A DNA stretch of 64,000 bases from Octopus vulgaris (lineage: Eukaryota): positions 36,270,001 to 36,334,000 of the forward strand of contig OX597840.1 of NCBI GenBank assembly GCA_951406725.2, given 5' to 3'. Shown here piece after piece: positions 3,707 through 45,692 of this stretch. A model generated the notes under the pieces. It saw only the letters and a list, made by a program, of their open reading frames with translations, made no database searches and was not told where the DNA came from. The position numbers and the translations under genes are program-made. The first letter of the stretch is position 1, and every line of letters begins with the position of its first letter.

Positions 3707-3819
3707 CTGAATATGACCAGAATCTTTGAAAATGTCTTGATCAATTTTCTCTTTGCGTAAATTGAGTGGGTCTTTAAGAAGGAGGTGTGCGACATATTTG
3801 GCGATTATTTCATCAATAC
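3707..3819 (-). CDS. GCLC-like coding exon 10 (gene continues beyond window start)
   Basis: atcag|GT+IDEIIAKYVAHLLLKDPLNLRKEKIDQDIFKDSGHIQ|gtaaaa; 113 nt; homologous to GIDHLLAQHVAHLFIRDPL...DHFE. The next exon (GWRVEFR motif) was not found in 1-3700. Confidence 0.9.
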
Positions 3820-4001
3820 CTGATTAATCAACAAATATTTGAATAAATTTCAGCAATTTAAATTTATTAAATTGTAACATTGTTGCATACTTACAACAGA
3901 GAATTTATATATAAACATAAATATATATGTGTGTGTATGTATATATGTATATATGTATATCAGTGGTGTGCAGTGACTTTTGAGGTTAATCAAACAATAA
4001 A

Positions 4002-5220
4002 TATGAGGAGTGGCTGTAAAGTTTATGGGCTGACCAAAATACTCTCAGAGAATGTAACCAAATGAGGTTTATTTTTCAATGTAGTCCCCACTTACAATTA
4101 TTCCATTGGTGTTGCAATGCTTGGATCCTATTGGTGCAGATACTTTCATCACATGGTCAAAAAAGTCATCAACAGCAGATATGACCTCATTATCACTATG
4201 ATACTGGTTCCCAACCAAGTGTTTTTCATGTTGAACAGATGATAGTCAGATGGGACCAAAATAGGAGAATAGGAAGGGTGATCAGCCAATCCAGAGCTAT
4301 AGTCATGCACAGCAGCCATTGAAACCAAGGATGTGTGTGCTAGAGCATTGCTCTGATGAAAGAAGAACCATTTCATTAGTTTTTCTGGGTGTTTGTTAAC
4401 TGCCTCGGCAAGTTGGTGTAGTACGCTTCATTGATGATGTGGCCCTTATGAAAATAGTTGAGAAACACAAAGTGTTTTGATATCAAATAACTGAGACCAT
4501 CAAATGCAGATGAAATGACATTGGTTTTATTTCAAGCAGGTGAGGAAGAATGTTTTCACTGCATAGATTGTCTCTATGTCTTAGATGAATCTTACACCTC
4601 ATCATGGGTTACAAAACATTCAAGGAGACTAGGTAGATCAGCCTCAAACAATGTCAGATTTTCCCACCATGTGATTAGCACTTTTGATCAGGTGTCAGAT
4701 GTGGCACCCATTGAGCATAAACCTTCATTGTGCCAAGTTGTTCAAATTATTCTCAACTCTCTGAAGGGATATGCTAATAACATGGGCTATTTGATTTATA
4801 TCCAATTGCCTGTTATCCATCAACATGTAGGGAACACGATCAATGATTTCCTCAATGGTGGCAGTTGTAGGATGTCCAGACATTCGGTCATCTTCGAGAC
4901 TCTCCCTTCCCCTCCTAAATTCGGCTGCCCACTTTTGCATTGTTGATAAAGCTGGAACATCATCCTGTAATGTAGCAATTATGTCAGCATGTCCATGTGG
5001 CCGAAAGCCTTTTTCTGAAGGTACGTGATAATAGCACGATGCACATTTTATCTATTTTTGAGAAAAATTGTTACTAGTTTCGTTTGAAGTCTTCTTTGAA
5101 CAGTCAGATGTCAGTTTACCTGAAAGGAAACAAATTAAGTAATTAATATGCAGGGTTGAAACAAGACATCTAGCAATACTCTTTCAAATTCAGCCTTTGA
5201 ACTTTTCAGCCCACCCTTGT
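4002..5220 (-). mobile_element. Decayed mariner transposon
   Basis: ORF pieces W..EFRRGRESLEDD.(R)SG.P and HPSYSP.L.PSDYHLF; degenerate TIRs at 4002-4030 and 5190-5220. Confidence 0.85.
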
Positions 5221-5808
5221 CCTTAGTTGTTGAGCTGATTCATTTTTTAAATTGTTTAATTAAGAGAACCAAAATAGTTTTGTATTATGGTCATGAGGTT
5301 CATTGTTTGAATGCATTGGCATTAATAGTTGTGCTATTCCATCACTTGTTGAGGTTATTTCTATAGATTTTCAAAAGAAATTATAGCCAACACTGATTTT
5401 GTTAGAACGTTTTGTATCGGAGATGCCTGATGTAAACAAGAATGAGGTCAAAGGTAAAAAATTGCTAATGGGCATATATAATATATTTTAAAAGTTTTGG
5501 ATCCCTCATCAGCACCTGACCAATCCATTAATCATCCACAATCACATTGCTTAAACAGCCACTAAATATAGCAGTGTAATGTTATTGGATTGACCAATTT
5601 TACATGGATGATCAATGGGTTGGATGGGTGCAGATGAAAGAAGAAAAACTCCTGAAATATGCTCATTACCCAATTTTCATCTTTGATCTCAATGTTGTTC
5701 ATGAGAAACTTTGTAACAAAAATCGGTACTGGTTACAATCTATAGAGATAATCTTAACAAGTAAAATCAAACAATATTTTTATATGATTTTTTAAAATTT
5801 CTAAATAC

Positions 5809-5947
5809 CTTCAGCCTTCAGTAATTCATACTGCCTATGGTCATAACGGTAATCATAGTCATTATAGAATTGGTTGTCCACAGAAATGTATCTTCCTATT
5901 GAATCAAAACCAGTTTTGTCCACCAAAACTTTGCCTTCTGTCAAAGG
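5809..5947 (-). CDS. GCLC-like coding exon 9
   Basis: cttttag|PLTEGKVLVDKTGFDSIGRYISVDNQFYNDYDYRYDHRQYELLKAE+G|gtattt; 139 nt; homologous to PLK...KSRYDSIDSYLS...YND. Confidence 0.9.
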
Positions 5948-6359
5948 CTAAAAGGAAGAGAAGGCAGTATAAAAAAAAGCAGTTCATTTTATGAAATGTA
6001 TTCTTTTATAAAACTTATTTAATACCAACCCACCTGAGTCCACCTATAATAAAGGGTTTTCAATTAGAAAACAATTAAAACTTTCATCATATGAATGTGA
6101 AGGACAATGACAAAGATAATGATGAAGGGACTGATGACGACCAAGATTATAATGACAGCGATGATGATGGTGACGACGACGACAGTGATGATGTTTATCT
6201 CCAACTCAACCCTCAAAAGTAAGGGTTATGTTCAAGGACAAAAGATGGTCCATTTGTGACCATTTTTTTACAGTTATCTAGGATTACATTATAGAACGTA
6301 TACCTTCCTTATTTATATTTGACACATATTTGGTATTTGTCCTCATCTTGTTTGTTGTT

Positions 6360-6405
6360 AACACAACATTTCGGCTGATATACCTTCCAGCCTTCATCAG
6401 GTGTC
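6360..6405 (-). ncRNA. Minimal type I hammerhead ribozyme motif
   Basis: GACAC-CUGAUGA-A-GGCUG(10-nt loop)CAGCC-GAAA-UG-UU-GUGUU: intact core boxes, stem II and stem I; stem III reduced. Confidence 0.7.
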
Positions 6406-6505
6406 TTGGGGAAATTTCAAACTTGGGTCCTCATTCGTAAAGTATTTTTCGATGGTGTTGTTGTTGTTGTTGTTGCTGCTGTTATTGTTATTATTATTAT
6501 AACTC

Positions 6506-6578
6506 AGGTCACTGCCTGGAATCGAACTCAGAATCTTGGGGTTAGTAGCCTGCGCTCTTAACCACTACGCCATATGCC
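6506..6578 (-). mobile_element. tRNA-like SINE head (Pol III A and B boxes) upstream of the hammerhead
   Basis: A box TGGCGTAGTGG (6572-6562) and B box GAGTTCGATTCC (6529-6518); anticodon and acceptor stems do not pair well. Confidence 0.7.
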
Positions 6579-7007
6579 TGTGGGCAATTATGTAGTGAAC
6601 TGTCAGGGCTTATAAATCTAATAATTTCCTATCCTTCCTTAATACCAGTTCCCATTTACTATTCATATCTGCTCTCGGTCTGCTTAGGAGGTTGTTGTGT
6701 CCTAGCATATGTGCTGTATACCTTCCTTCTATTGAACAATAGGTTTTGCTTTGAGGGAAATTTGCCTGTTATTTCTAGCATGCCAAGTTTCACAGGAAAC
6801 AACATGTGTAGGGTGATACAATATCTTGTTTTTGTCTTTACTGGCATCACCTGACATATTTTTACCTAGCTTTTCATCTCCATTGTTTAAATGTTTTAAA
6901 ATATTGTTAACTTTCAGAATGATTTTTACTTTGAAATTAGGGAAGAATTTTTAAGCATTTCCTTCAGAAATTCTTTTACAGGGTGAGATAAATATATTAG
7001 AACTCAC

Positions 7008-7124
7008 TTCTATTCCCCGTTCTTGTCTGGTACGATCATCACAAGACCAAGACATGGGTCTCCAAGCGGAATCAAATTCAGATAAAAGTCCTCGATAAAT
7101 CGGTGATCCAGCTGTCAGTGCTGT
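7008..7124 (-). CDS. GCLC-like coding exon 8
   Basis: ttttgcag|TALTAGSPIYRGLLSEFDSAWRPMSWSCDDRTRQERGIE|gtgagt; 117 nt; homologous to [39 protein letters not shown]. Confidence 0.93.
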
Positions 7125-7775
7125 CTGCAAAAAAAAAAGGTTAGCATTATATGCAATAAGACAAAGCTCCTTACTTGATCCCTACCTTTTACACACAAAG
7201 ATCTAGATTAAATCAACTATGCATTTAATTTTTTTTTTACTTGTTTCAGTCATTGGACTGCAGCCATGCTTCAGGACTGCCTTGAAGGTCTTTTAATCGA
7301 CCCCAGTACATATTTTTTTTAATCCGGTATATAACATTCCTCGATAAGTGATGGGAAGATAAGCAAACCAACACTGGTTGTCAAGTGGTGATGAGGATAA
7401 ACATAAAAGCAAAGATACCCTCGTAGATATATATACATACATAGATACATACACATACATGTGTGTATTGATAGTATAGCTTATAGTGACAGTATAGTCT
7501 ACATGGATAGCTTAATACATGCTAACTATGTAGAATAATGTTTGCTTAGTTTATATTGACAATGTGTGAATGTCTGTGGCTTAGTGGTGAGGCTATTTGG
7601 CTGACAATTGTAATGTTGTCAGTTCAATTCCCAGCAGCATGTTGTGTCCTTGAACAAGATGCTTTCTAAAAACAAAATTGAGATATGAAGAGAACATTCC
7701 ACTCGTATTAATTGACTGCTTACCTACCTTTGCCCACCTCTCTATCTTAACACGAATAAATGAAGCAATGCTTAC

Positions 7776-7993
7776 CATAATCGGAGTAAGAGGCACAAAA
7801 TTGTCAAAGAGATAAGCAGCTTCTTTCAGACCAGCAGCTTGAAATGTAACTTGTATAACACAGCAACTGACTCCGAATGATTTAGTATCCATGTAAATGT
7901 GGCCTGGTTTCAATGCTTTCATCATCTCTTCATTGTCTTCATACTCAGACAAATCCTCTCCGTATGGCATCATCGTATTTTTGTCTATATAAA
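7776..7993 (-). CDS. GCLC-like coding exon 7
   Basis: tttcag|TT+YIDKNTMMPYGEDL...KPGHIYMDTKSFGVSCCVIQVTFQAAGLKEAAYLFDNFVPLTPIM|gtaagc; 218 nt; carries the GCLC signature region HIYMD...FG...QVTFQA. Confidence 0.93.
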
Positions 7994-9449
7994 CTGAAAC
8001 AAGAATTTTATAATCATGCAAACTTGGCTCAAATTAGGTTATTAATCAGTAAAAGACAGAGTCAAATTGATTGATAATCAGTCAAAAACCAAATGCAATT
8101 AAACAGGACTGGATGAAGAACTCTCGTGTATTTTGACAACACTTACAAAAAAAGGATAATGCACAGGAAATTACAAGTTTCTACATAAGTTAGCTTCCCT
8201 TCTCTGTGTATCCTTTACCTCATTCGATACTACAAAACAACATTTAAAACCTTGTAGTATCTTGTATATTATCATGTAATCTTATCCACCATGGAACTGG
8301 ATTACCAGCATTTTCATGTGGGATGATCGAAAATGTGAGTTGGGGGGGGGGGGGCATACAATCAAGACTAGACTTTGTAAGGGATGAAATATATCAAGGT
8401 TGATGACCCGAATAAGTCTCTTCATTAGTTCAACATAAGTTAGGCTCTTCTTAAAACAGTCACTGACAGGGTTATGAAGTCAGAAGCCAATAAGTATTTC
8501 CAACTAACAAAAAAATTCCAATTTATATCACAAAATATTTGAATGACGTCCTAATCACGTTGACATATCTCTACAACTGCTTTTATATTAGGAAGCTCAA
8601 CAGAGCACACTCAGCCAAATCATGTAAGCATTGATAATCTACAAATAAACTATATATATATATATACATATATACAATACATATAATGGAGAAATTGTAC
8701 AAAATGTATAAATGGATGATGAGTAAAGCACTGGCACAGTTTTGATTCCCTGTTGTTATCCGTAGATTTACTGCAGGAACTTCGAAGTGGCAGTTGGGGT
8801 AACAGTATTAATAAAATAAGAGCTGGAATAGACTTTATTGGGTACAACACATGTTTCAACCCGTTCCGGGTCTCTTCATGTATTCAGTAAAAAGTCTCAC
8901 CAGAGATTTTTTGAGTCGGCTAATGTAACGCTCTATGCCCATCAAATTCGAGAATATGTATATATAAGATGAATTGGGATTAAAAAATCCTGGCAGATAT
9001 CAAGTAAGCACTCAGTAAAAAGGAATAAGTATAAATTTCCAAAAAGTAGTTAAAGTAAATGTATGTAGAATACAAATCTCAGGTAAATCCTCATTTATGA
9101 CAGGTAAATCCAATAATCCTTTTGCAGAATTTTAAAAAATTCAGATATTAACAACAATCAATGATTTGTACGAAGAAAATCCTGTCTTTAATTTATATAT
9201 ATGGTGGTTGTTTACTCCTTATACAGAGTCTGACCCCTCCTTGTGTACTTACACCTTAGATCCATCATGGCATCTGATATGGTTTCTTAAAACAGACAAT
9301 GTATTGAAAAGACATCCACACAGATTGCACATCTGATTTGGACCACCAAGAGCTGCAGCTAAGTTCTGGTCTTTGTGGATCTTAGAATGTTTTTTTGCAA
9401 CACGCATCTGTTAGATTTCCAGACCTTATGGCACACATGGCATTGAAAG

Positions 9450-9495
<46 letters not shown>

Positions 9496-9504
9496 CACAC
9501 GCAC

Positions 9505-9650
9505 ACAACAGGCTTCTTTCATAAGGCTTTGGTCAACCCAAGGCTGTAGTGGAAGATATTTGCCCAAGGTGCCACACAGTGGGATTGAACCCAGAACCAT
9601 GTAGTTGGGAAGCAAGCTTCTTACAACACAAACACACATGCACCTATGTG
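9505..9650 (-). mobile_element. tRNA-derived SINE (family 2)
   Basis: ggttctgggttcaatcccactgtgtggcaccttgggcaa...; further copies near 14815-14965(+), 23140-23285(-), 42220-42375(-), 48855-49015(-), 57445-57560(+), 63590-63690(-). Confidence 0.75.
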
Positions 9651-9969
9651 ATATAGCTTTTATCTTCAATCTTTTGTTTCACTTGTTAGACAGCAACCAT
9701 GCTGGGCACCTGGAACTATTTTTAGTCAAAAGGATTGACCCTAGTACTGAATTTTTTTTTTATATGGACCCAGAATCTTGTTGTTGGAAACAAGCTGTCT
9801 ACCACACACCCACGCCTGTGCCTTGAAGCCAATATTAAAGTTGAGTTGAAGGCAGCAAGTATGAAGAATCGTTAGCACAGCAGGCAAAATACTTAGCAGC
9901 AGTTTGTCCATCTTTACTTACCACTTTGTTTATTAGAAAGATAATGTATTTTATGCTTAGTATACTTAC

Positions 9970-10029
9970 GCGGTACATTGATTACCATTCTTTCTTGTCT
10001 TCTTTTAGCTAAATTTTTTATACGAGGTT
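9970..10029 (-). CDS. GCLC-like coding exon 6 (apparent +1 frameshift in A6 run)
   Basis: Long pyrimidine tract, then caag|...KNLAKRRQERMVINVP+C|gtaagt; homologous to TRNIRHRRGEKVVINVP. The exon is 60 nt, but the flanking phases require 59. Confidence 0.82.
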
Positions 10030-11354
10030 CTTGATAAAACAAAAAAAAAAAGGAAAGAAGAAAGGAAGTAAATAAAAAAATAAATAAAACATTGAATATA
10101 TCAAACATTAACAATTATGAAAATTGGTCTTAATTAAGTCAGCAAGCTGGGGGAATCGTTAGCATGCTGGGTGAAATGCTTAGTGGCATTTTGTCCTTTC
10201 ATCCTTTTGGGATCAATGACATAAGTACCAGTTACGTACTGGGGTTGATGTAATTGATTAGCCCATCCCACCTCTCCCACAGTTTCAGGCCTTGTGCCTA
10301 TAATAGGATGGATTATTTTATTAGAAAGGATGATGAAGATAGTTGTTTCTTTTTAATCTCATTCGAATATCAAATCCTATTTGAAACTGACCCAGATTCT
10401 GTCATACAAAATCTTCATCCTTAAGTATCCGGACCTATTAGTCAAATATTTCTTCCAATTTGTGGCACTCAAGATGTTTGGAAGGTTCTTGTCATCGTTG
10501 GCAGCTTGTCTCACTGCAGTGTCAGGTGATGCCTGAGGGTGCTTCACTTTTCCAATGTCCAAGCCTCACCACCACCTGTTGTAATGCTGTGAGTGTGTCA
10601 GCTTGTTTTAATAGGTTCCGTTTAACCTTGAAGTGTTTCAACAATTGAGACACTTGGTATTGAATTGATGTGGGGTTTTTTCCCCTCTTCTTCCATTTTT
10701 CTACCAGTTTGGAATTTATGTTTTCAAATGTGGTCTTGTATTATGTATGTATCATATGTGAAGGTGCATGATTTAGTGGTTAGAACATTCAGCTTACAAT
10801 TATAGGGTTATGAGGATTTTAATTCATAAACCAATAAATAATTTACCGTTTTGTTGCTAGTGCATTTGAGTCCAATATATTACTGGTATTTTATTTTATC
10901 AGTGACAGAGGGATCGGCAGCAAAGTTAATCATTGTCATTTATTATAAGTTCATTCACATCTACAATGCTTTGGGGTCAAATTGATTGGTACTTTATTAT
11001 AACAACACAAATATGTGATTGGTCTTTTGTAATACTGATCCCAGTACTTGAATGGTACTTTATTACCTTGACATCAAAAAGATGACAAAGTTGATCCCAA
11101 TGAGATTTGAACTCGGAACATAAAAGGACATAGTGCAACAATCGATATCTTACAGAGGCACAATGCCACACATTTTAAGTGGGTAATAAAGTATAATGGA
11201 TTATATTGAAACCCACCCCCTAATTGACTGGTACTTTATTTAATTGACCCTCAAAAGATGACAAAGTCAACGTCTTCAAGATTTGGATTATCAAGCAACA
11301 TAGGAATAACACAGAATAACACAAGAAGATGTGCAAAAATGTTTTATGACTCAC

Positions 11355-11471
11355 ATATAGTATGGAGTCTGGGAGCACAGTGCTGCATCTCCTATGAAAA
11401 CTGATTGGTGAAGTTCGACTGGATGCTTGTTTACTTTGTAAGATGGAAAAGTGAAATTAGGACAGCCGAAT
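11355..11471 (-). CDS. GCLC-like coding exon 5
   Basis: ttttttcag|A+FGCPNFTFPSYKVNKHPVELHQSVFIGDAALCSQTPYY+AT|gtgagt; 117 nt; homologous to LGCPGFT...SLFFPDEAINKHPRF. Confidence 0.9.
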
Positions 11472-12216
11472 CTGAAAAAAGAAAATTTTTAATTAATTAT
11501 CATTATTATTTGTATTGAGTGAGAAAGCAATGCATGCCATCAAAGTGACACTGGAATACAAATATGCAAAGCCTAATATACCCATCTGATAAGGGTACAC
11601 CAGGCACATGCCTCAGAGCCATACGTGCGTGACACAGTGATTTCATATCAAGTTAAACAGTGCAGGTTTAACTTGATATGAAGGTGGGTTCCAGTTAGAA
11701 TTTTCTTCAGGTTAAGTAGTCAATCCTGCATCAAGACATCGTGCATTTAAGAAAGAAACTACACCTTATATAACAAAAGTCTTTCTGATTTGTTGTGTTC
11801 CTTTGTGTTAACAGAACTTTTCCCATTGTTGTATTACAACATTTTCCTTCCATCGCACTGATGTTATTGGATTAAGTTTGTTTTGTGAAAAGAGCTTCTT
11901 AGGGTACATCCATGTTGTCATTTAGCCTGAAGCTATTTTTATTGTTATTATTATTATCATTATGATTATAAGTAGTAGTAGTAGTAGTAGTAGTTGTTGT
12001 TGTTGTTGTTGTTGTTGGCATTGAGCTGGCAGAATCGTTAGTGCCCTGGATGAAATGCTTAGTGGTATTTCACCTGTCAATACATTCTGAGTTCAAATTC
12101 CGTCAACGTCAATTTTGTCTTTCATCTTTTCAGGGTCGATAAGATAAATACCAGTTGAACACTGTAATTGATTTATCCCCTTTCCCAAGATTACTGCCCT
12201 TGTGGCAAAATTTGAA

Positions 12217-13178
12217 ACTGTGATGGCCAGATAAGATGTTCAAGTTCACTAGAATGTTCCTCGTACCATTCAGTAAAGCTTTAGCGGTGTGAATTGGTAC
12301 ATTATCATCCTGAAAGATTGTGTTTCCATCTAGAAACAGTTCTGTGAACATAGGATGAATTTGATCTGATAAAATACTTAAATAGTCTTGACTATTAATT
12401 CTGCCATGAAGGGAAACCATTGGGCCGGCAGATTTCCAAGATATAGCCCCCCACCCCCGATCATCACAGATCCTGCTCTATGTTTAACAGTGGGAAGAAG
12501 GCAGTCTGGGTCAAAAGCTTCTTTTGGCTGTCTCCACGCGCATACTTCGCTGGAGGTCGGAAATAAGGTAAAGGATGACTCATCCGAGAAAATAACATTC
12601 TTCCACTGCTCTAAGGACCAATTCTGTAGGGGTTTTTTTTCCACTCTAAATGCTTTGCGACTTTTATTTTTGAAAGTATTGATTTTCTGATTGCAGCTCC
12701 TAGCGAACAGTTTTTATGGAAACTGTGTTCTCTAGGTGGTCATTAAGCTCTGCAATAATTTTGGGAGCTGTACTTTTGTGATCCTTTCTAACAATTCATG
12801 TAAAAGCCCGATGGTCCCTATTGAAAAGTTTTGGTTTTCTTCTGGAGTTTTGTTTCGACAAGGAAGTTTTTCCCTCTTTCTCAAAGGCTGTCATTACTTT
12901 TGAGACAGTACTTCTTGAAACACCAACCATTTTGTCTGTTTTCGTTACGCTAGCACCTGCCAATTTCATCTCCTTGAAAGTCCGATAGAGGTGTCATTTT
13001 AATGAATTTTAATTACCTATTTCTGAGGATATCTGAAAAGAAACAGCAATTTTAGCAAAACATATTAAGCGACGCTATTAATAAATCAAAAAAAAAAAAA
13101 CTAACAAACTTTTGACAGTTTTATAGATATTTCAGAATTATGATGCTAGGTGTTTCCATTATTTTGTCCAACCCTGTA
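12217..13178 (-). mobile_element. Tc1-like transposon, truncated
   Basis: WKNVIFSDESSF, PTVKH..GSVM and FQDDN.PIHTA motifs; TIR CAGGGTTGGACAAAATAATGGAAAC next to TA at about 13152-13178. Confidence 0.88.
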
Positions 13179-13272
13179 TATTCATTCACAAAAATGTTTT
13201 ATAAAAATACATACATTTATTTTCCCATAAAAATATAAAGCTGTATTTACTCAGAAACAAACTCTACGTAAA

Positions 13273-13482
13273 TACGAGTGGTAATAAAACGTTTCTGGCT
13301 TTACGAAAGGCCTAGCTGGAGACCCAATATTCCGAGTTCTTTTAAAGGGCTTGGAAAAACTGAAGGGCTGCTGCAATAAGCATGTGAATCTGAGAGGGGA
13401 ATATGTTGAATAACATCATAATTAACTGATCCTCCTCTATTTTCTTTTACCCAAAACCAGGAACTTTCAGCACCCCCTCGTA
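13273..13482 (+). mobile_element. Mariner-derived MITE
   Basis: TACGAG...CTCGTA ends and internal gctgcaataag..tgtgaatctgagaggggaatatgttgaataa; related copies at about 14990-15208, 18330-18530 and 24661-24870 (inverted). Confidence 0.7.
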
Positions 13483-13530
13483 TCTACATAAAATAACATA
13501 CATAAATATTAGCTTCAAGATTTCACTTAC

Positions 13531-13596
13531 CTTGGAAAATGTGGCACACTAACTAGAGTTTGGTTTGGGCTGAGAAGTTGTTTAATTGCTTTACGT
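13531..13596 (-). CDS. GCLC-like coding exon 4
   Basis: ttttag|A+RKAIKQLLSPNQTLVSVPHFP+AG|gtaagt; 66 nt; homologous to RKEATSILEENQALCTITSFPR. Confidence 0.88.
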
Positions 13597-15531
13597 CTAA
13601 AATATTAACAAGATAGATTCTTGATGAGTCATGGAACTGAACAAAACAGATTTCATACATATTGTACTTAAAAAGTAACAACAACAAAAACAACGATGTT
13701 TGGAAAATATTTAATATTTTGAGGTTGGTTTTGTGAAGGCAGAAGGCTTAATGGTTAGGGTATTCAGCTCACTATTGTAAGGTTGTGCATTGTGTCTTTG
13801 AGCAAGGCACTTTGCTTTGTTGCATTGTTTCAGTATACTCAGCTGGCAAAAATGAGTTGCACATGTACTTTAAAAGGCCAGCAATGTCGTATTTTGTGTT
13901 AAGCTGAATTTCTCTGAGAACTGTATTAAGGGTACATGTGTCTGTGGAGTAGTTCAGCTATTTGCATGGTATTTTCGTGAGCAGGCTGTTGTTCTGCTGA
14001 TCGGATCAACTGGAATAACTGCCAGTTTTGTGTGGTTGTTTTGCTTTGTCTCTTTCTTTTTCTATCCTGTGATGTCCATTTAAAAGCGGTTTTAGAACAG
14101 CAGTGGTCTGTTAGCCAGAGTATGTGATCTGCTAGTTTTAACCTTTGCTCTTTGATAATCTATAATGATTTTGTAGTCTTGTGGTGGCTCTCTTGAGGCC
14201 AATATCACATGACCATACATATGACAGCCCATAAATGGTGATGGCTTGGTCAATCGATCCAAAACAGTTATCCTCTTCTGCCTCCAACTCATTGTTTCTC
14301 ATGGAAGTAGATGTGGCTGACAAAACCGATATAAGATAGACTGATCCTGTGGCACTGAGGGCCCTGAAATTGACCCTGAACAACAACTGCAGGGGGTTGA
14401 TTGCAATATCTCCTCTCTTTATGCAGTTTCACACGTCCAGATTCAAAGCACTCTACTTCAGCATCACACATGTATCTCAATGCCTTCTGGTTATCACCCA
14501 TAACAATTTTTCTTGAAACAAATTTTTAACAGCTTGATGGCCATCCTGTCACCAACCCTCACCTGTATCGAAGCAGGATAATACTTACCCATAGCCAAAC
14601 ATGTTTTTCATGGAAGATTTCAAATGGGAAGTGTCGCTTGTATGACAATGATGCTTGTTTACAACCGTCCCATGATGTTGAGACAAGGACACATACACAC
14701 ACATAAATAAGTCATCACCAGAAATACAGAGAAAGTGATTTGTCTCTTAGGAACCAATAACCAACAACGATGTTATTGCTTATGCAATATACAATGTGAA
14801 AAATAGTTCTGCAAGCCTGGCTGTGTAGCAAGAAGTTCATTTCACAATCATATGATCTTCAGATCAATCCCACTGCATGGCACCTTGGTCTTCTCTTAAA
14901 GCCAGAGGTGAACCATTATCTTTTGAGTGGATTTGGTAGACAGAAACTGAAAGAAGCCCATTTATATGTGTGTGTGTGTGTGTGTGTGTACACTTGGGGT
15001 TGCTGAAAAATGACTGTCTTTAAGAATATCACAAAAGCCTGGTTGGAGGCCCAACCTTCTGAGTTCTTTTGTGGGGATAGGAAAACTGAAAGACCTCTGC
15101 AATAAGCATCTGAATCCCAGAGAGGAAGATGTTGAATAAAATCATAATTCACTGATCCACCTGTATTTTCTTTCATCCCAAACCAGGAACTTTTCAACGC
15201 TCCTCATACGTGTGTGTGTGTATATGTGTACACACGTGGTATTGTCTTCTTGCCTTGACTTCATGCGACAATTGTAAACAAATATCACTGACATACAGGA
15301 GGTGTCCTTTGTTTCCAGTCCTTCATGAAAACATGTCTGTTCATGAGGAATATTGCCTTGCTTGGAAGTTGATGTCAACAAGTGAAGTTGATGACAAGAA
15401 GGGCATCAGATCATAGAAAATCCACCTCGGTGTTTCCGTCCAACCCATGCAAGCATGGAAAAGTGGATGTTAAATCAATGTCAATGATGATGATGAAATG
15501 TAAATAAAGTACATGAAAATATTTTGCTTAC

Positions 15532-15639
15532 CTTTCTTTAAAATGTTCTTCGGTAAGGTTCAAATCTGTGATGGAACTGCCAAATGGGTTTTTTGGTATG
15601 CCTTCCAGAATATATTCGAGACTTTCTGGAACCCATTCG
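15532..15639 (-). CDS. GCLC-like coding exon 3
   Basis: aag|C+EWVPESLEYILEGIPKNPFGSSITDLNLTEEHFKE+AG|gtaagc; 108 nt; homologous to WRPEYGSYMIEGTPGQPYG. The acceptor is weak (purine-rich), but phase fits. Confidence 0.85.
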
Positions 15640-15784
15640 CTTTTAATGTATTGTTTTTAAAAAGATAAATTATATTTATCAAGTTAGAAAGCATATAATT
15701 TTAAGAATTAATTATAGATTTTTTCCAGTTGTTTTTGTTTTGAGTATGATGAAAGAATGTTTAAATTGCAATTTTATATAATTA

Positions 15785-16370
15785 CTAGTAGAGATACTCA
15801 GCATTGCTCGGGATTAAAATGGCATAGTTTGTATATATATCAGTTATTATATATAGTTTGTATATATATATATGAGTTATGTTGAAACTGGTGATACGGG
15901 AAAGTGCAACATTGACAACAAAATATTTTGGGAGTAAATGATGGTCTAATTTGACTAAGCGACAAGCAGTAAGTCCCTTTGGAGGATTTCAGGCCTTAAC
16001 CTATCATGGAAAACTGGGAGTAGTGCGGTATGTAATTTTTGAACCCACCAAAAAGTTGTCAGTAGATATACTTGCAAATTTCTTTATAATCATAATCTAT
16101 GCCGTTTGAAAGGGATTTGTATAAATTGTCATTAAAAGACACCCATTTTCCTGAAAGTTATGAGGGGAGAAAAGTTACATCATGTGAATTTTCCGAAACA
16201 CTTCTCTCCACCCCCTCGTAAAAATTATTTCCCATCAATCCCTGTATACTCTGAAACCACAACATCTAAGCGGTATTTGTAGAAAATTTTGTTAAAAAGT
16301 ATCCATTTTTCTGTATGAGACAACAAAGTTGGGAGCGTATACATCTGTAGTAAGGCCCTTTTATTTATAA
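15785..16370 (+). mobile_element. Possible Helentron/DINE-like non-autonomous element
   Basis: Begins ACTAG...cattgctcggg, has internal sub-repeats and ends ccttttatttata; related pieces near 47470-47730 and 55590-55930. Confidence 0.4.
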
Positions 16371-16437
16371 AATTTTTCATTTCATGTTCATTTCATTCAT
16401 TGTTTGCAATGTTCTCTCTTCTCGTCTGTCTGTCTGC

Positions 16438-16470
<33 letters not shown>

Positions 16471-16838
16471 ACTCACACACACACTCTGCAAAGCTTACAG
16501 ATGGACTGCTGAATTGAAATCTCTATGCTGCTTTGAGGGGAAGGTAAAACTTGATAAACTGCCTCTCCTTCTGTTGTTAGACTACCGTGATGTTTGTTTA
16601 AAAAAAAAATTATGACTGTGATAAAATAATGAAAGCAGTATTTACTAAGCAAGTGAACACTATTATACAAAGAAATGATTAGACATAAAATATAAAAATT
16701 ATTAGAATTGAGAATCAAATGTGAAAATATTATCAAGGGGATAGCAGAAAACCACCCGGAGGCTGTCTTTCTGCCAGTATAGATAATGAAAATTAATTCT
16801 AAAATATATGATAATTTCATTCTTGCTGTGTTTCTTTA

Positions 16839-16876
<38 letters not shown>

Positions 16877-17429
16877 TTCTGTCAGTTATGGCAATGAGGG
16901 TTCCAGTTGAGCCAATCAATTCAAGAGCCAGCTCATGAAATTGACATGTAAGTGGCTGAGTCGATCACAGAAAGTGACAAAGCTGGTCCCTTAAAATATG
17001 AATACTACTCAAGCTTCTATATCACTGGAAGAAAGGGATCCAAACCAAAGAGATTAAACCGAAAATGGTGTAATTGTTCAACCCATGCTCTTGCTTTGAT
17101 AAATTACAGAAACTGTCGCATATAAAACAGAGGCTTTCCGTTGGTGCACAAGGCCAGCAATGTTGAGGGAGTGGATTAGTTGATATTGTTGAATCCAGGA
17201 ATTGACTAGATAAATATTTTATTGATCCAAGAGGGACAAAAGGCAAATTTACCATGGAGAGATTTGAACTCACAATGTAACGCTTAGTATAGTATATATA
17301 ACTATGTGACTAAATCAACCACTAAGATGGCATTCAATGTTGAAATCCCTCTAAACATTAAAATCAATGAGTTGAGACAGAAAAGAGAAACAGGTTCCAG
17401 TGATGTGAACCAAACTACGCATCTGTCTC

Positions 17430-17485
<56 letters not shown>

Positions 17486-17574
17486 AATTATCCAAATTAT
17501 TGTTTATAATAACTTCCATTCATCATCAAGGATTAAAGGATTATTGAAAATCAAGTGCACATAATTATACTCAC

Positions 17575-17681
17575 CTTGATTCTAATCCCTTTACTTCAGG
17601 AGATTCAAGTAAGGACATGGAATTCAACAATAACTGGACAACTTTTTGATCATGGTCAAATTGTATTAATGAAAACTCAAT
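17575..17681 (-). CDS. GCLC-like coding exon 2
   Basis: ttttttag|IEFSLIQFDHDQKVVQLLLNSMSLLESPEVKGLES+AG|gtgagt; 107 nt; homologous to VEYMLVSFDHENKKVRL; phase fits neighbours. Confidence 0.9.
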
Positions 17682-20139
17682 CTAAAAAAAAGATCAAATC
17701 AGTTGTTTCTGAAAATCATATAAATGGGAGAAACAGATGTTTGAAAAAGTTCACAGAATATTAAATAGCACTTTGTAAACATCATGTCCTTACTATTGGT
17801 CAACTGAATCTACTTTTTTATCCAAAGGTTCTTTAAGCAAATATTTAAACGGTATCATTTATGGTTTTATCTCCTTTGAGATCCATCAATAAAACCTGAT
17901 TACTTTTCTTGAATTCTGTTGTTCCAGCTTCTATAATTTTTAGAGAAATATACTTCCAAAACTCAGTGTCAAAGGAACCAGAAATAGAACAGCCTGCCTC
18001 AGAGCCCTTTAATTTGTTGCGAGTTTTAAAAGAAAAGAGGACAAAGCTGTAATGAAAAACTGTTCTATGAGTAGAACCTGAAGGCAGTTATAAACAGGTA
18101 GTTGTTTGTGAAGCATACAGATTTAAGCACTCACCAGTGAGAAAAAAGGTAAAAAAAAAGGAATGTTGTTATTGGGTAGGAGATGCTCTGAAGACAAGTT
18201 GGATGCTGAAGCAAAACCAAGGTCATAAATACATTCGTCATACAAGTAATCACATACAGCTTCAATGTTATTAACTATTGCTGATATCAACAAAGCTGAT
18301 GTAAAAAATCTGAAAGCTGATATCAGTGCATCATATACAGGATGAGGTGTTGAAAAGGATATCGTGAAAGGCCCAAACTTCTGAGTTCTTTCAAAGGGCT
18401 TAGAAAATCTGAAGGGCCTCTGCAAGAAGTGTGTGAATCTGAGTGGAGAATATGTTAAATAAAATCACAATTGACTGATCCCCTTGTATTGCCTTTTACC
18501 CAAAGCTAGGAACTTTTCAGCACCCATCACATCACCTAAAAGAAGACATAGATCAAATATATCTTCAGAAAAAAAGTTGTTGTAGTGGGCTGTTAATGCA
18601 ATCCCAACTCTCATTGAACATTGCAACCATGTCCACATGAAACATGGTTCTCAATCTTGAAAATACCAAAACGTTGCACTCAGTGATGGAAAAAGGCTAT
18701 AATATACCTGAGGGAAATACAACTAGATACTATTTGAACCAGAACCTGAAGACAATATGTCTCCAAATGAAATGGCATAACAAATAAAAATACAACCAAA
18801 CAAACCAGCCACCAAATATACTAAAAGGAAAGGAGAGCAAAAGCTACTGCATGGCAAATACCTGATTAGAATTATTAATCATGTTGTAGACCAAATTCTT
18901 AACTGCCAATTCAGAAACTATTGTTATTACTAATAAGGATGAGTGCCTTTCAGTTAAGAATTGCCAGTGGAATGTTCTAAAAAGATGAAAGCAGTCCATC
19001 ATGTTGCATATGCAGAGAACATTCAGAGACAATTGGTCCACATCATCTCTGGATGAGAACAACTGATACGAAAATATTACTTGCAAAGACGTGGCAGTAC
19101 AGTTCAGTATATAGACTGATCAAGATGCCTCTCATACAACTTCCCTCACAAAGATGTAGGAACACAAGCCACATGTTGCTCAGAAGGATGGTGCTTCCAT
19201 CCTTTGGAATTTCAGTGTTCAGACTGATCGGCAAACTCAGGCTAACCAGCCAGATATCATGTTCATTAAGAAAATCTCTTTTAATTAATTAATTTGTTAG
19301 TTGCAAAACCATTGACTGTGTGACACTGTTTTTCTATATATTGCAAGCTGGAGTAAACTACCACTATGTCTAGCAAACGAGTATCCACTACAAAGGATGA
19401 TCAAAATAAGATTGAAATCACATGATATAGTGGTCTCCAAGCTAGGATACTAGAAAGGTCTCCCCCCACATGCAATATATATCCTGGCGTTAAAATAGCA
19501 GTATTGTCTGTTCTTGTACAGTTGGCAATAAACATTACAACTAGATATCTTTTTAAAAATTCATATTGAAAAGACATCTTTTGATGGATGCCGACGAAGC
19601 ACATCTGTGAAAACGTCGAAGAATGTGACATCTCAAATCAACATTACCTACAGCTATTGGGGAATTTGGGATGATATCAAAAGGAGCAAACAAAAATGCA
19701 AGCCATAATTTATAGCAACCTCAAAATAAGGTCCATTAAGGGTTCTTTACAAATCTTATGTAAATTCCTTTCCATGTAAATACAATCTTATTCATTAAGT
19801 CTTTTTTGTGGAGGCACATGGCTCAGTGGTTAAAGTATTGCACTCTTGATTGTAAAATTATGGTTTTAATTGCTGGACTGGGCAATGTGTTGTGTTCTTG
19901 GGCAAAACACTTCATTTCATTGCTCCAATTGATTAACTTGCAAAAAATGAATAATCCTTAATGGACCACCATCACATCTGACAGCAAAAGAAAATCTTGG
20001 TAAACACAAGCATGACCACAAAAGAAAACCTTTTTTTTCTTTGTTACTATTGTGTATATCAGATGATGAAGAAGAGGATGAGATGTTGTTTGGGAACAAA
20101 TCCATCCTAACCATGCCAGCTGATTGTTGTTGTTGTTTA

Positions 20140-21060
20140 TAAAGGTGGCAAACTGGCAGAATGGTTAGCATACTGGATGAAATGCTTGGCAGTATTTTGC
20201 CTGTCACTACGTTCTGGGTACAAATTCTGCCGAGAATCGACTTTGCCTTTCATCCTTTGGGTTGATAAATTAAGTACCAGTGAATCACTGGCATTTTATT
20301 TATTTATAATTAATTGACTAGTCCCCTCCCCTCAAATTTTGAGCATTGTGCCTATAGAAGAAAGTATTATTATCATCATCATCATCATTAAGGCTTTGAG
20401 GGTGGTCAACTGCCAAAATTGTTAGCATGATGGGCAAAATGCTTAGTGACATTCCGTCCGTCTTTACGTTCAAATTCCTCTGAGGTCAGCTTTGCTTTCT
20501 CCTTTCGAGGTTGATAAATTAAGTACCAGTCATACGAATGGGATGTAATTGACTATTCTCCTCCTCACAAATTTCAGACCTTATTCCTTTTGTAGAAAGG
20601 ATTATTAAGGTTGCAAGCTGACCATATCATTAGCATGCCAGGAAAAATATTTAGCAATATTTCACCAATCTTTACGTTCTGAACTCAAATTCTGCTGAGG
20701 TTGATTTTACATTTCATTCTTTCGTGTTTGATAAAATAAGTACCAGTTGAGTACTGGGGTCAATGTAATCACTACACTTCCCTTGAAAAAGCTGCTGGCC
20801 TTGTGCCAAAATTTTGAAACCATTGTTATTGTTATGAAGAAGGTAACAAGCTGGCCGAACCATTGGACACCGGAAAAATTGCTTAGCAACATTTTGTTTG
20901 TCATTTTGTTGAAATTTAAAATTCTGCTGGGATCAACTTTATTTTTCACCCTTTCAGGGTCGATAAAATAACTAACAGTTAAGCACTGGAGTCTATGTAA
21001 TTGACTAGCTCCATCCTACTAGATTCCAGGCCTTGCATCTTTAGTACAAAGGATTATTAC
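20140..21060 (+). mobile_element. Head-to-tail cluster of four family-1 SINE copies
   Basis: Copies start near 20143, 20400, 20608 and 20841, each with the aaattc...ttt...gataaa.taagtaccagt core. Confidence 0.75.
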
Positions 21061-21235
21061 TGGAGAATTTTAAAACATTAATAACTGCAATGCTTTTTAG
21101 ACTCGAGGATTAATTTAAAATCGACAAACTCTCCCCACTTCTCTCTCTCTCTTTCTGTATCTCTCTTCCTTTCTCCATCTTTCTATTTCTCTCAGTTTTT
21201 CTCATGCATAAATTTCTATAGTAGGTTATACTTGC

Positions 21236-21385
21236 CTCATCGCCCCAATAAAAGGGATAATTATTTTGGTCCTTATATTTTCTATACAGATGAACAAACT
21301 GCATTCTTGATTGGTCCTTAATATGTGGAATCAAGGGTTCGATTTCCTCCCATGTCAAAAAAGAATGGTCTGTTGCTGAAATCAT
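21236..21385 (-). CDS. GCLC-like (glutamate-cysteine ligase catalytic subunit homolog), coding exon 1
   Basis: Translates MISATDHSFLTWEEIEPLIPHIKDQSRMQFVHLYRKYKDQNNYPFYWGDE (50 aa), matching the GCLC N-terminus (L[ST]WEE...QF...Y...WGDE). Upstream acceptor ttgcag ends at 21449. The donor is GAG|GCAAGT. Confidence 0.9.
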
Positions 21386-30717: not shown

Positions 30718-31973
30718 CAGGGTGGGGAAGCAAAATTTACAATATTTTGAGGCAGGGATTGAAAAACATTGTATGACGAATTAGTTTATTGAAAGTCATG
30801 AGAATTTATTTGCCACAAGAAAATGTACATAATAGAAAATGTTTTTATTCTATGTGTCCTTCTTTCTCAATAACTGCCGTCACACGCTTCCTGAATCTTG
30901 TGCAAGTGTTCCTTAAATATTTGAGAGACAAAGTCTCCCATTCTTCTTTAATAGTATCTTTAAAAGAGTCGACATTACTGTGTGATGTTGTATTGGTAGC
31001 ATGTTCTAAAACGCCCCAAATAGCATAATCCAGAGGGTTTAGATCTGGGCTAGGTGGCCATAAACATGATTCCAAAAAATTACTAAAGTTGGATTTCCAG
31101 AAATCTTGTATTTTTCTAGCTGTGTATGCTCGAGCACCATACTGTGTCCATACATAATTACCATCTGGGTAGTTTGCTTTAAGCCATTGCAATAACTGGT
31201 ATCTCAGAGTCTTGTACTAAGTATCAACATTGATATTTTCATCAGCTTTGTAGAATTTTACATGCACTTTCTTTCTATCGGAAGCCACAACACCAAAAGC
31301 CATAACTTGAGCCGGATGTTTTGTTTTGAATGTCCCCTTAACCTCAGCTGTTGATTTTGCAATAAATCTGTCATTTCTGCAGTTCACAACATCATCAACA
31401 CTGAAGATTTTTTCATCTGAAAAGATCATTACAATGGAGGACTTTTTCTTGAACCATGTAATAATTTTCTTGCACCTTTCCAATCTCTTTTCCCTCATAG
31501 CTGTTGTCAACAAGTGTTTTGGTGTTCTTGTGTAAGATTTTAACTTAGAATCATATTTTACTGCATTTCTAATGGCCTTGTTGACTACCTCAAGTTCAAT
31601 TGCCATTCTTCTCATGGATTTGGTTGGATCCTTTAGGATTTTGGTACGTTTTTGTTGATTCCTCCACTTCCAGACCTCCTCATAATAGTTTTGCTCATAG
31701 TCATTATATTATTTACATCATAAACAGTCTTTATGGACACTCCAACTATTCTTGAAGTCTCCTTTGGTGTGACAAGTGCATTCAGCAAATCACACACTCT
31801 TTGACATTTCCTTTCCTGATTACTCATAAGGGCAAAAGTTTCTGAAAAGGTAAGGATAATAGTGTTAGGTATGATTATGACGTCAATATATGCGAGGTTT
31901 CAAAACAATTGACTTTGTGCCTGCTGGGTAAAAACAACTTAATGTTCATTGTAAATTTTGCTTCCCCACCCTG
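30718..31973 (-). mobile_element. Full-length but inactivated maT (DD37D-type) Tc1/mariner transposon
   Basis: Perfect 26-bp TIRs CAGGGTGGGGAAGCAAAATTTACAAT flanked by TA; transposase in three ORF pieces (IFSDEKIF, QYGA.A, WPP-SPDLNPLDYAIW). Confidence 0.92.
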
Positions 31974-32534: not shown

Positions 32535-35306
32535 ATGGACAGTTGGACAGTTTGACCGGGGTCTGGGAAGCCAGGGGCTGCACCAGGCTCCAGTCTGATC
32601 TGGCAGTGTTTCTACAGCTGGATGCCCTTCCTAACGCCAACCACTCCACGAGTGTTGTGGGTGCTTTTTACATTGCCACCGGCACAGGTGCCAGTGGAGT
32701 CTGGCATCGGCCACAATCGGTTGGTGCTTTTAACGTGCCACCGGCATGGAAGCCAGCCAAGGCGGCACTGGCATCGGCCACGTTCGGATGGTGCTTTTTA
32801 TGTGCTACCGGCACAGAATCCAGTCGAGGCGGCGCTGGCAACGGCCATGTTCGGATGGTGTTTTTTATGTGCCACCGGCACAGGTATCACAACTACTATT
32901 TCCATTGATATTTTTTCGATGTTCATGTACATGTACTTGACTCAACAGGTGTCCTCAAGCACAGCGGGATGTTCTGGGATCCAAGGTACTTTGAATGGGC
33001 AGGGGCTATGCGGAACTGGTGCAGGAAGCAGCCTGGGTCTTTGCAGTCACAGCACATCTCCAGAGATCTCGGTCCTTCGCCATTGCCTCAGTGAGATCCA
33101 ATGCTCTGAGGTCATGCTTGACTACCTCATCCCATGTCTTCCTGGGTCTACCTCTCCCCCTGATTCATTCAACTGTTTGGGAGCGGCACTTCTTCACACA
33201 TCTCTCCTCATCCATCTGTAGTACATGACCATACCATCGCAAGCGTCACTCTTGCACACCACATCTGATGCTTCTTATGTCCAGCATTTCTCTCAGGGTG
33301 CTTACCCTCTGTCGTGCACGCACACTGACATTACACATCCAGCGGATCATGCTAGCTTCATTTCTTTCAAGTCTACGCATGTCCTCTGCAGTCACAGCCC
33401 ATATTTCACTACCGTGAAGCATGGCAGTTTGCACACATGCATCATACAATCTACCTTTCACTCTGAGTGAGAGACCCTTTGTCGCCAGTAGGGGTAGGAG
33501 CTTTCTAAACTTTGCCCAGGCTATTCGTATTCTAGTGGTGACACTCTCTGAGCATCCACCTCCACTACTAACTTGGTCACCCAGGTAGCGGAAACTATCG
33601 ATTACTTCTAGTTTCTTCCCCTGGAGTGTGATGGAATCTGTTTTCTGAGTATTTGTGGTGTCTATTGTACCTGTGCATCTGCCGCACATGAAAGCTATCT
33701 TATCAGTTAATTTCCCTTTGATGTTGCTGCACCTCTTATGCGTCCATAGCTTACACTGGGTGCATCTTATGGAGTTTCTACCTACACCTTTCCTACAGAT
33801 CGAGCAGGGCCACCTGCCCGATGGGGTGTGTGCTGAGTTTGCCTTTCTGCTTACTATAACTTTGGTCTTTGCTACATTTACTCTAAGGCCCTTTGATTCT
33901 AACCCTTGTTTCCACACCCGAAATTTCTTTTCTAGTTTCAGTAGTGATTCTGCTATGAGAGCCAGGTCATCAGCATAGAGGAGCTCCCAGGGGCAACCTG
34001 TTTTGAATTCCTGTTATTGCCTGGAGGACTATGATGAATAAAAGGGGACTGAGGGGTGGGCCTTGGTGTACACCTACTTCTACCCGGAATTCTTCACTAT
34101 AATCGTTGCCAATCCTAACCTTGATGACAGCCTCTCTGTATAGGGCCTGTACAGCCCTTATTAGCCATTCGTCAATCTCCAGTTTCCACATCGACCACCA
34201 GATAAGGGATCGGGGGACCCTGTCAAAGGCTTTCTCCAAGTCCACAAAAGCTATGTAGAGTGGTTTATCTTTAGCTAGGTACTTCTCCTGCAGTTGCCGG
34301 ACCAGGAATATAGCATCAGTGGTGCTTCTACCCGGCACAAAACCGAACTGCATCACATCTAAGCAAATTCTCTCCCTAATGAGATGGGTTATGACCCTCT
34401 CTGTGACCTTCATCACCTGATCCAACAGTTTAACACCCCAGTAGTTATTTCTATCTAGAGCATCACCCTTACCCTTGTAGCAGTTGACTATGGTGCTGCT
34501 ATGCCAGTCTTTGGGTATGACTCCATTATGAACTACCTGGTTTACAATACGGGTGACTAGGCCATAGCCCACATAACCAGCTGTTTTAAGCATCTCAGCA
34601 GTGATTCCTGATGGGCCGGGGGGCTTTACCTGGTTTTATACCCTTAATTGCCTTAACTACAAGGGAGCTGTCTATTTGGATAGCTGGTCCCTCTACTGGG
34701 TCAACATTCGGCAGGCTCTCCTCCTCCCATTCATTCTCCACATTCAGCAGTCTTTCATAATGGCTTCTCCAAGCCTCTTGCTTTTCACCAACATTAAAAG
34801 CAAGTGCTCTATCATCCATGCGGACACATTTCTCTCCTGTAACATCACTATTTTCTCTCACACACTGTCTAGCGATCCGAAATACCTGTTCTTTGGTCCT
34901 CACGTCGATGGACATTGGCAAACTTCTTCTTTTCTGCTATATCTTTGGCTATGTATACCTGCCGCCCAGCCTCCCTTTTGGCTACTTGGTACAGTTCCAT
35001 GCTACCCCCATCCCTCCAGGCTTTCCAGGCCTGTTTCTTTGCACTAATGGCTTTGTCTACTGCACTATTCCACCACCACCTAACTCTAGGTCTGGAAGTG
35101 ACTTTGCACCATCCACAGACTTGGTCTGTGGCACTCAGCAAGCTGTCCCGTTGGAATTTCCAGCTACCTTCTATGTCCGACGTCTGTAGCTCCTCCTCCC
35201 TCTCATCAAATTTCTTGATGAGGATGTCCCTAAATCTCTGACCATGTGAAGGGTTCTTTAGCTTCCAAATCCTTCTTTTCTGGATTCCAAATCCTTCTTT
35301 TCTGGA
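32535..35306 (-). mobile_element. 5'-truncated RTE LINE (about 2.8 kb) with RT, PHD-like insert and 3' UTR
   Basis: QFGFVPGRSTTDAIF, AFVDLEKAFDRVPR, GVHQG..LSPLLF, LYADDL (33963-33980); broken by frameshifts and stops. Confidence 0.93.
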
Positions 35307-44866: not shown

Positions 44867-45692
44867 ATCTCAGGGAAAAGATGGACTCCGTTGGAGTTTC
44901 TCACATAAATTTCCAAGTGATTTTCTTCTTTCACCAGATTAACCAGAATTCACCATGGATTTATACAAACAAGGTTAAAAGTTACAACTGTTCTGTACAA
45001 CATCTTTTCTCTTAGTCATTATAAGATAATAACGATGATGTGGCTGAAGTTAATTCTGTTCTGCCAATGTCATCTGAAATAAAAAACAGAATAAGATATA
45101 AGGGACACTTAAGAAGTTAGGATTCAACAGTAGAAATTTTACAATGTTCTTCTTGATAAAATGTAAACAAAACTCTTTACATGAATGACTCAACTTATCC
45201 AAAGTATCTATATTTATGATAAGAGATAGATGTGTGTGTGTTCCAAGGATCAAGGTATAGGAAGTTGGTAAGCTTCAAGCAGTCTGTAGAAAATATAAAA
45301 GACAACTTTCAGAAACAATAGTGCTTTATTGACGTAGAAAGTTCAATAAGCTGAATAAAAGTTATTTTATAGTTCATGGTTAGCAGCTGGGGTTGCTGTG
45401 TATGTGAATAAAAATCCAAATTTAGGAAATGAAGTGAATAAAATTCAGGCTACATGTTTCATTGCTAGCAGAATCTCACATGTAGTAATTGCCCAAATAT
45501 AATCTAATGAAGTTTGCATTGTAATCAAGGGGCCCTATATTAACTCACAGGAGATAAGGTATCTTTGGTCCGACAAGTAGCTGGGGGGTTACCCCTCATT
45601 TGGGAAATTATTACTTCTGATGTTCTGCTAGCTATGAAAATATATGTGTCCTGAATTTTGGATACATATGTATATATATACATACATACACA

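Follow-up and report, generated by a model that had tools for sequence, protein, structure and literature searches.

Gene structure and location

The 64,000-nucleotide stretch of Octopus vulgaris DNA analysed here (the window; G000:C27:36270001-36334000) carries on its minus strand most of a 16-exon paralog of GCLC, the gene for glutamate-cysteine ligase (GCL). Ten exons, delimited by splice sites and a six-frame motif search, lie at 21385-3707 and the remaining six beyond the left window end. They are given below with residues numbered after yeast Gsh1, counted along alignments to the structure 3IG5; the numbering used in the first-pass annotation, which had been made from the window sequence, proved to be right.

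21236..21385, minus strand: coding exon 1, residues 1-50, ending in WGDE with E50; GC donor of intron 1; 50/50 residues identical to O. sinensis P0013
17575..17681, minus strand: exon 2, carrying E52
15532..15639, minus strand: exon 3, yeast E96 and E103 retained, Y97 replaced by S
13531..13596, minus strand: exon 4
11355..11471, minus strand: exon 5, HPRF loop reading TPYY, R196 replaced by Y; covered by spliced contigs in 4/4 runs (see below)
9970..10029, minus strand: exon 6, 60 bases in the assembly; joined by splicing to exon 5 in 4/4 runs
10014..10019, plus strand: T6 run with the one-base frameshift; T5 in contigs
7776..7993, minus strand: exon 7, M258K, M262V and C266V; Q268 retained
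7008..7124, minus strand: exon 8, R313A; DDRT retained
5809..5947, minus strand: exon 9, R361G and Y362F
3707..3819, minus strand: exon 10, R416K, F437I and E438Q
G000:C27:36269488-36258063, outside the window: exons 11-16, carrying W445G, K451, E470 and R472
Motif starts, minus strand: WGDE 21247; PES 15629; LEG 15608; TPYY 11368
Motif starts, minus strand: MDTKSFGVSCCVIQVTFQ 7892; SPIYRG 7106; DSAW 7073; DDRT 7040
Motif starts, minus strand: KTGF 5917; KDP 3775; GHIQ 3718

All motifs named in the first-pass annotation were recovered on this strand, and GWRVEFR, left there to the 3' exons, reads GWKVEFR. The conserved exon structure it had described is borne out by 14/14 introns compared, which match the canonical gene in position and phase; canonical intron 1 lay outside the comparison, and exon 2 starts at the identical residue in both genes. 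The protein contains the PF03074 domain, matches 3IG5 with E=1e-77, is 50% identical to the octopus canonical GCLC and is about 40 residues shorter at the C-terminus. Its O. sinensis ortholog (accession XP_029652703.1), in the 607-aa form P0013, differs by 5 residues and one break, the 5 differences being inside the range of 3-11 found for four sister ortholog pairs. The O. bimaculoides ortholog P0016 is identical at 476/529 residues, and the exon 7 translation agrees with an O. sinensis record at 72/72 residues.

Exon 15 is present twice (G000:C27:36261307-36261170 and 36258788-36258651), the two copies agreeing at 98.4% over 258 bases. At a P/L position the second copy is matched by O. sinensis isoform X1 and the first by isoform X2, with read-through into the intron, so that the duplicate appears to be shared with O. 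sinensis. Exon 3, here and in the sister genes (108 bases, phase 2-2, with E96 and E103), is skipped in the public models P0016, P0006, P0007 and P0011, reflecting either an annotation error or an in-frame dead isoform.

A family of seven paralogs

A PF03074 search of the assembly (G000) gave 49 matches, which resolve into the following loci.

C4: canonical GCLC
C27: seven full paralogs, four at 13.34-13.59 Mb, one at 23.94 Mb and two at 36.19-36.29 Mb
G000:C9:8400-16800: 3' fragment of c1, the neighbouring paralog, spread over 8.4 kb close to where the contig starts; frame break in the last exon
G000:C28:20820400-20822500: 3' fragment of c1

The separate canonical GCLC that the first-pass annotation expected is therefore present. 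The window gene is one of seven paralogs, a family missed in that annotation. A search with exon 1 returned exactly 7 + 1 matches in the genome, and the two fragments are 95-97% identical to c1. All seven paralogs have 16 exons with canonical phases, and in six of them the frame is open over 605-607 codons. Identity is 65-81% between paralogs and 51-56% with the canonical protein. All lack the C-terminal tail as well as the cysteine at the position matching mammalian 553 (P in the window gene), to which we attribute a role with GCLM. Public databases label them glutamate-cysteine ligase. In paralog a4 (G000:C27:13592569-13592718) E50 reads K in this assembly, where P0018 of O. sinensis and P0008 of O. 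bimaculoides both have E, possibly an inactivating allele or a base error. In exons 10-16 of the C27 paralogs, patches of 96-100% nucleotide identity occur between copies otherwise 60-90% identical (for example a3/a4 exons 15-16 and a2/a3 exon 11), which suggests gene conversion.

In the part of the O. vulgaris ink proteome available from PMC10142993, one peptide (2 spectra) fits several sister paralogs and neither the window gene nor the canonical protein, indicating that some sister paralog is translated. Neither an octopod GCL expansion nor such paralogs were described in the literature searched, mostly open papers, and gene-family tables beyond it may list them. The enzyme name was not found in the searched supplements of PMC7693380, PMC10138644, PMC7656900 and, as far as those sources were available, PMC9712504 and PMC12607849, nor in the main text of PMC7656900 and PMC6635378.

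The reading frame of exon 6

Unreported in the first-pass annotation is a one-base frameshift: exon 6 has 60 bases here, against 59 in the canonical gene and in each of the six sisters, and the extra base sits in the T6 homopolymer at 10014-10019. The public model of this gene, P0014, begins after the frame break, and 3 or 4 amino-acid changes are private to this assembly. Part of exons 7-8 is contained in 20 of the 24 sequencing runs listed, and in 13 of those, from 4 studies, 28-30% of the sequence words were found, about the exonic share. Four of the 13, one per study, were examined as contigs, the runs being taken as RNA by guess. In all four, exon 5 (11355) is joined to exon 6 at 10018. 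Five T are printed in the contigs of two runs, and the identical joint in the other two implies the same T5, so that the spliced form is in frame. Exon 6 has a single match in the assembly and no processed copy elsewhere, which makes a processed DNA copy an unlikely source of the contigs. Four further runs with the same species labels contained almost none of the words and carry no weight either way. The frameshift is likely to be an assembly error or a private allele.

Active site and fold

The comparison set comprised 107 canonical GCLCs, the non-paralog rows of 120 listed proteins. Among 173 columns near-invariant in these, 58 are changed in the window gene and 44-51 in its sisters; an alteration of 58/173 is not due to chance. 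Against this background, all eight core residues (E50, E52, E96, E103, Q268, K451, E470 and R472) are retained in the window gene (hypergeometric p=0.035) and also in its O. sinensis ortholog. Of these, the first-pass annotation had named the first five, correctly; K451, E470 and R472 are intact too. The same core is complete in five sisters, the sixth (a4) having E50K in this assembly only. R449 and R468 are altered solely to K, and R468 is K in all paralogs.

Both amino-acid pockets are rebuilt. We take R196, Y97, F197, M258 and M262 to line the cysteine site and R313 to belong to the glutamate site. For R313, PMC5613772 gives such a role only through the Leishmania equivalent, by a numbering offset. 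According to the same paper, Y362 contacts the glutamate carboxyl OXT, E52 the glutamate amino group and R472 its side-chain carboxylate in the yeast enzyme; E96 and W445 contact cysteine, E50/E52/E96/E103/E470 bind Mg and K451 contacts ADP. In the window gene the glutamate alpha-carboxylate site is altered (R313A, Y362F and, at a neighbouring position, R361G), as is the cysteine site (Y97S, R196Y, F197Y, M258K, M262V, W445G). New polar residues, K240 and N402, lie near the glutamate site. R361G, W445G, Q441F, E438Q, R449K and R468K had been overlooked in the first-pass annotation.

These changes differ in their distribution. R196, M258, M262, R313, R361 and W445 are each invariant in 107/107 canonical proteins and all altered in the window gene. 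R361 is also R in 148/148 cluster representatives with a letter there and in all 7 other paralogs, Argonauta included, and R313 is R in 143/146 representatives. Within the family, R196, M262, C266, F437, N439 and Q441 were lost by all paralogs, with cysteine-pocket replacements that differ by copy: the HPRF versions of the seven are TPYY, IEYF, DPFF, FPLF, LPLF, HPVY and FEFF. R313, R361 and R416 were lost in the window gene alone, and W445 here and in a1; R313A, R361G, R416K and W445G are common to P0013 and P0016. The substitutions at Y97/R196/F197/M258/M262 and R313/Y362/C266 described in the first-pass annotation are present, with qualifications. Loss of the cysteine site is family-wide, and the S of PEY>PES is confined to this assembly, P0013 having C. 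The changes at C266 and Y362 are not diagnostic, because C266 is altered in all 7 paralogs and Argonauta, Y362F occurs in 5/7 paralogs and 2/107 canonical proteins, and the Leishmania enzyme, according to PMC5613772, is active with Ala at the C266 position. By sequence the six sisters, in which R313 and R361 are retained, have the glutamate site intact but an acceptor site not made for cysteine, as expected of a gamma-glutamyl-amine synthetase (EC 6.3.2.18 type); the window gene (R313A, R361G) does not.

A model built from 117 sequences has a predicted local distance difference test (pLDDT) score of 89.4 and, compared at the level of the fold, a template modelling (TM) score of 0.86 to yeast Gsh1 3IG5; YbdK and plant GCL rank next in the fold search. 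The metal-binding glutamates and the catalytic arginine are predicted to lie on the central sheet, as in the glutamine synthetase (GS)/GCL fold. An earlier model from a 26-sequence alignment (pLDDT 53.5) was not used.

Phylogeny

Two IQ-TREE trees were computed with a mixture model as quick searches without bootstrap. The paralog clade is sister to octopod GCLC (Shimodaira-Hasegawa-like approximate likelihood ratio test, SH-aLRT, 86-87), within the cephalopod clade (100). Argonauta hians P0025 falls inside it (SH-aLRT 100), so that the duplication likely predates the Argonauta-Octopus split; P0028 branches just outside. The family stem is long, about 0.84-1.0 changes/site versus <0.2 for the canonical sister. 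No decapodiform-named paralog was present among the protein matches, most of the short ones being nameless, and restriction to octopods is therefore provisional.

FastTree had grouped the octopod paralogs with other long-branch remodelled GCLs, a placement rejected in favour of the mixture-model nesting in cephalopod GCLC. The approximately unbiased (AU) test rejects a single clade of all 11 remodelled rows (p=0.017). Together with the nesting this disfavours an ancient second GCL lineage as the origin of the paralogs.

Selection

Pairwise Nei-Gojobori (NG86) ratios of nonsynonymous to synonymous change (omega) among the seven paralogs are 0.19-0.39. Codon likelihood gave an omega of 0.29 overall and, for the branch of the window gene, 0.43 versus 0.27 elsewhere (p=0.005); 0.43 is below 1 (p=7e-7). 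The window gene is therefore under purifying selection. A pseudogene would be expected to show a fixed broken frame, an omega near 1 and no spliced transcript, or substitutions not shared by orthologs; here the frame break is absent from 4/4 runs, spliced contigs exist, the substitutions recur in P0013 and P0016, and a canonical GCLC exists elsewhere in the genome, so that the circumstances under which the first-pass annotation would have been abandoned do not obtain.

Across the 7 paralogs mean site omega is 0.13 in the core (low, p=0.002), 0.36 in the rest and 1.0 at six acceptor residues (high, p=0.0003), these being the first-pass list plus W445. An 11-residue acceptor set gave a still higher value but carries no weight here, part of it having been picked after the variation had been seen. 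Among site models, M8 is preferred to M7 (p=9e-6) and to M8a (p=0.0045, or p=0.013 when the window gene is left out), with M2a vs M1a borderline (p=0.055). The top sites include 240 (M258), 186, 179 (H194), 93, 185, 183, 241 and 402, in or beside acceptor segments. Because gene conversion is indicated, branch lengths were scaled from M0 and site posteriors are naive, positive selection at the acceptor pocket is suggested and not proven.

Flanking sequence

By eye, three C2H2 zinc-finger-like open reading frames lie upstream of the gene on the minus strand, and introns and flanks contain pieces of mobile elements.

43514-44869, minus strand: C2H2 zinc-finger-like open reading frame
53182-54843, minus strand: C2H2 zinc-finger-like open reading frame
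60295-61251, minus strand: C2H2 zinc-finger-like open reading frame
4066-5051, 12130-12993 and 30848-31708: broken mariner/Tc1-like transposase pieces
1290-2040 and 33249-35200: LINE-like reverse transcriptase pieces

Discussion

The window gene is a GCLC duplicate which has kept the fold and the metal and catalytic residues, has had both pockets rebuilt, is spliced, and shows a constrained core beside a fast acceptor pocket. As to its function, we lean modestly towards an ATP- and Mg-dependent amide ligase acting on substrates other than glutamate and cysteine, in an octopod duplicate under purifying selection. Mg ions would be held by E50, E52, E96, E103 and E470 as in GCL, K451 and R472 would help ATP to phosphorylate a carboxylate, and the acyl-phosphate would then react with an amine to form the amide. 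The family-wide loss of R196, M262 and Q441 would exclude cysteine and favour other amines, different for each paralog. Since they keep R313 and R361, the six sisters would still use glutamate and act as gamma-glutamyl-amine ligases on various amines. With R313, R361 and W445 lost, the donor of the window gene would lack a free alpha-carboxylate; it may be like gamma-aminobutyric acid (GABA), or glutamate with a blocked or bulky alpha-carboxyl. The small side chains at 313, 361 and 445 would also enlarge the site, which would suit a blocked or bulkier donor no less than GABA; the GABA or beta-alanine donor is a guess.

Several points weigh against the amide-ligase reading. The predicted activity is deduced from residue conservation, and without two invariant arginines the enzyme might just be crippled. 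The roles given to R313, R196, F197, Y97, M258 and M262 come from general background and a secondary paper. The assembly's own copy is frameshifted, the runs behind the contigs are RNA only by guess, and at 11433 all four depart from the window and match the proteins of O. sinensis and O. bimaculoides, so that their source may be another haplotype or a sister species rather than the population of the assembled individual. The window gene has the highest omega in the family, across the family the donor-site set (omega 0.46) evolves no faster than background (p=0.27), M8 vs M8a on residues 1-360 alone gives p=0.052, and the 3' exons, where some pairs are 96-100% identical, show gene conversion.

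Alternatively, L-glutamate might still be the donor, its alpha-carboxylate bound more weakly or in a rearranged manner, and only the acceptor amine would differ, as predicted for the six sisters. The residues contacting the alpha-amino group and the gamma-carboxylate, E52 and R472 (roles from PMC5613772), are retained, K240 and N402 could stand in for the lost arginines, and the changes at Y362 and C266 are tolerated elsewhere. We consider this unlikely given that both R313 and R361, so rarely or never replaced among the canonical proteins and representatives, are gone. It is also unlikely that the protein is a non-catalytic pseudoenzyme with a metabolite- or nucleotide-binding, structural or regulatory role, as with S-crystallins and lengsin. 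Degradation of both pockets, the missing C-terminal tail and cysteine 553 equivalent in all paralogs and E50K of a4 in this assembly would fit, and a kept fold would explain purifying selection; yet the core is the slowest class of sites, is complete in the window gene and its O. sinensis ortholog, and the pocket positions diversify instead of decaying at random.

That the gene is a redundant copy in decay, the frameshift being a real loss-of-function allele in this lineage, appears improbable. The additional base, the late start of P0014, the highest branch omega, the duplicated exon 15 and the assembly-private changes can be cited for it, but the break falls in a homopolymer and is absent from the four runs, orthologs are intact in O. 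sinensis (607 aa) and O. bimaculoides, the number of differences from O. sinensis is ordinary for the family, and omega is well below 1. An ordinary, somewhat divergent GCL raising glutathione supply in some tissue is very hard to credit: database naming, PF03074 and the unchanged fold and introns speak for it, but a canonical copy is present and all six of the 107/107 invariant residues named above are altered.

The amide-ligase reading has parallels in known systems. In GS/GCL-fold ligases, acyl-phosphate chemistry identical to that of GCL has been turned to new amines. YbdK, PafA, gamma-glutamyl-methylamide synthetase and 1-naphthylamine GS, all returned by the fold search, share this fold with the paralog, but are bacterial and 7-12% identical in the structural alignment, the octopus gene being a recent duplication of animal GCLC. 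With GCLC and yeast Gsh1 (PF03074; 3IG5) the paralog has in common the fold, the introns, the eight metal and catalytic residues and descent from cephalopod GCLC; it differs at the glutamate site and at the cysteine site (with Y97 replaced by S or C), in its shorter C-terminus and in being one of seven diversified copies. Aplysia gamma-glutamylhistamine synthetase (EC 6.3.2.18, not known to have been assigned a gene) provides a precedent in molluscs for the ATP-dependent glutamate-amine ligase activity that the six sisters are predicted to have. The window gene itself has lost the glutamate arginines. No remodelled Aplysia paralog occurred among the proteins given names. Vertebrate lengsin is a glutamine-synthetase-like duplicate of a metabolic enzyme. 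Cephalopod S-crystallins, derived from glutathione S-transferase (PMC6635378), are, like the paralogs, lineage-specific duplicates from glutathione metabolism. In contrast to these, the core of the paralogs is their most constrained part, which argues for kept chemistry.

Remodelling is not confined to octopods. Among 149 other cluster representatives, 27 have >=3 cysteine-site or >=2 glutamate-site changes with the core mostly kept; of the 17 looked up, 13 are from Mytilus, Mercenaria, Mactra, Lingula, Tachypleus, two mites, Apostichopus, Rotaria and four fungi (remodelled GCL-like proteins P0136, P0139, P0143-P0145, P0154, P0155, P0157, P0165, P0187, P0239, P0246 and P0274), a canonical copy also being seen for Mactra only. 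The AU test given above speaks against placing them and the octopod family in a single clade. All 27 keep R361, making the donor-site loss of the window gene unusual even among remodelled GCLs. The Tachypleus protein retains its glutamate site; horseshoe crabs reportedly contain gamma-glutamyl amine conjugates.

A wider proposal is tentative and, in our estimate, rather doubtful: octopods may have recruited GCLC into an amide-ligase family in which six members would each make a different gamma-glutamyl-amine and the window gene would ligate a non-glutamate donor, giving an unrecognised metabolite class, with independent recruitment repeated in bivalves, horseshoe crabs, mites, sea cucumbers, rotifers and fungi. 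Animal GCLC is usually seen as a single, tightly conserved housekeeping enzyme, and a seven-gene family with a fixed core and a fast acceptor pocket points to unrecognised amide metabolites. Carrying the label glutamate-cysteine ligase, the octopod paralogs would be poor glutathione markers in octopus expression studies. Amine-conjugating activities have been reported in molluscs, and the paralogs are candidates, open to testing, for the genes behind them. As a natural set of enzymes varying in specificity, they may also be of use in biocatalysis.

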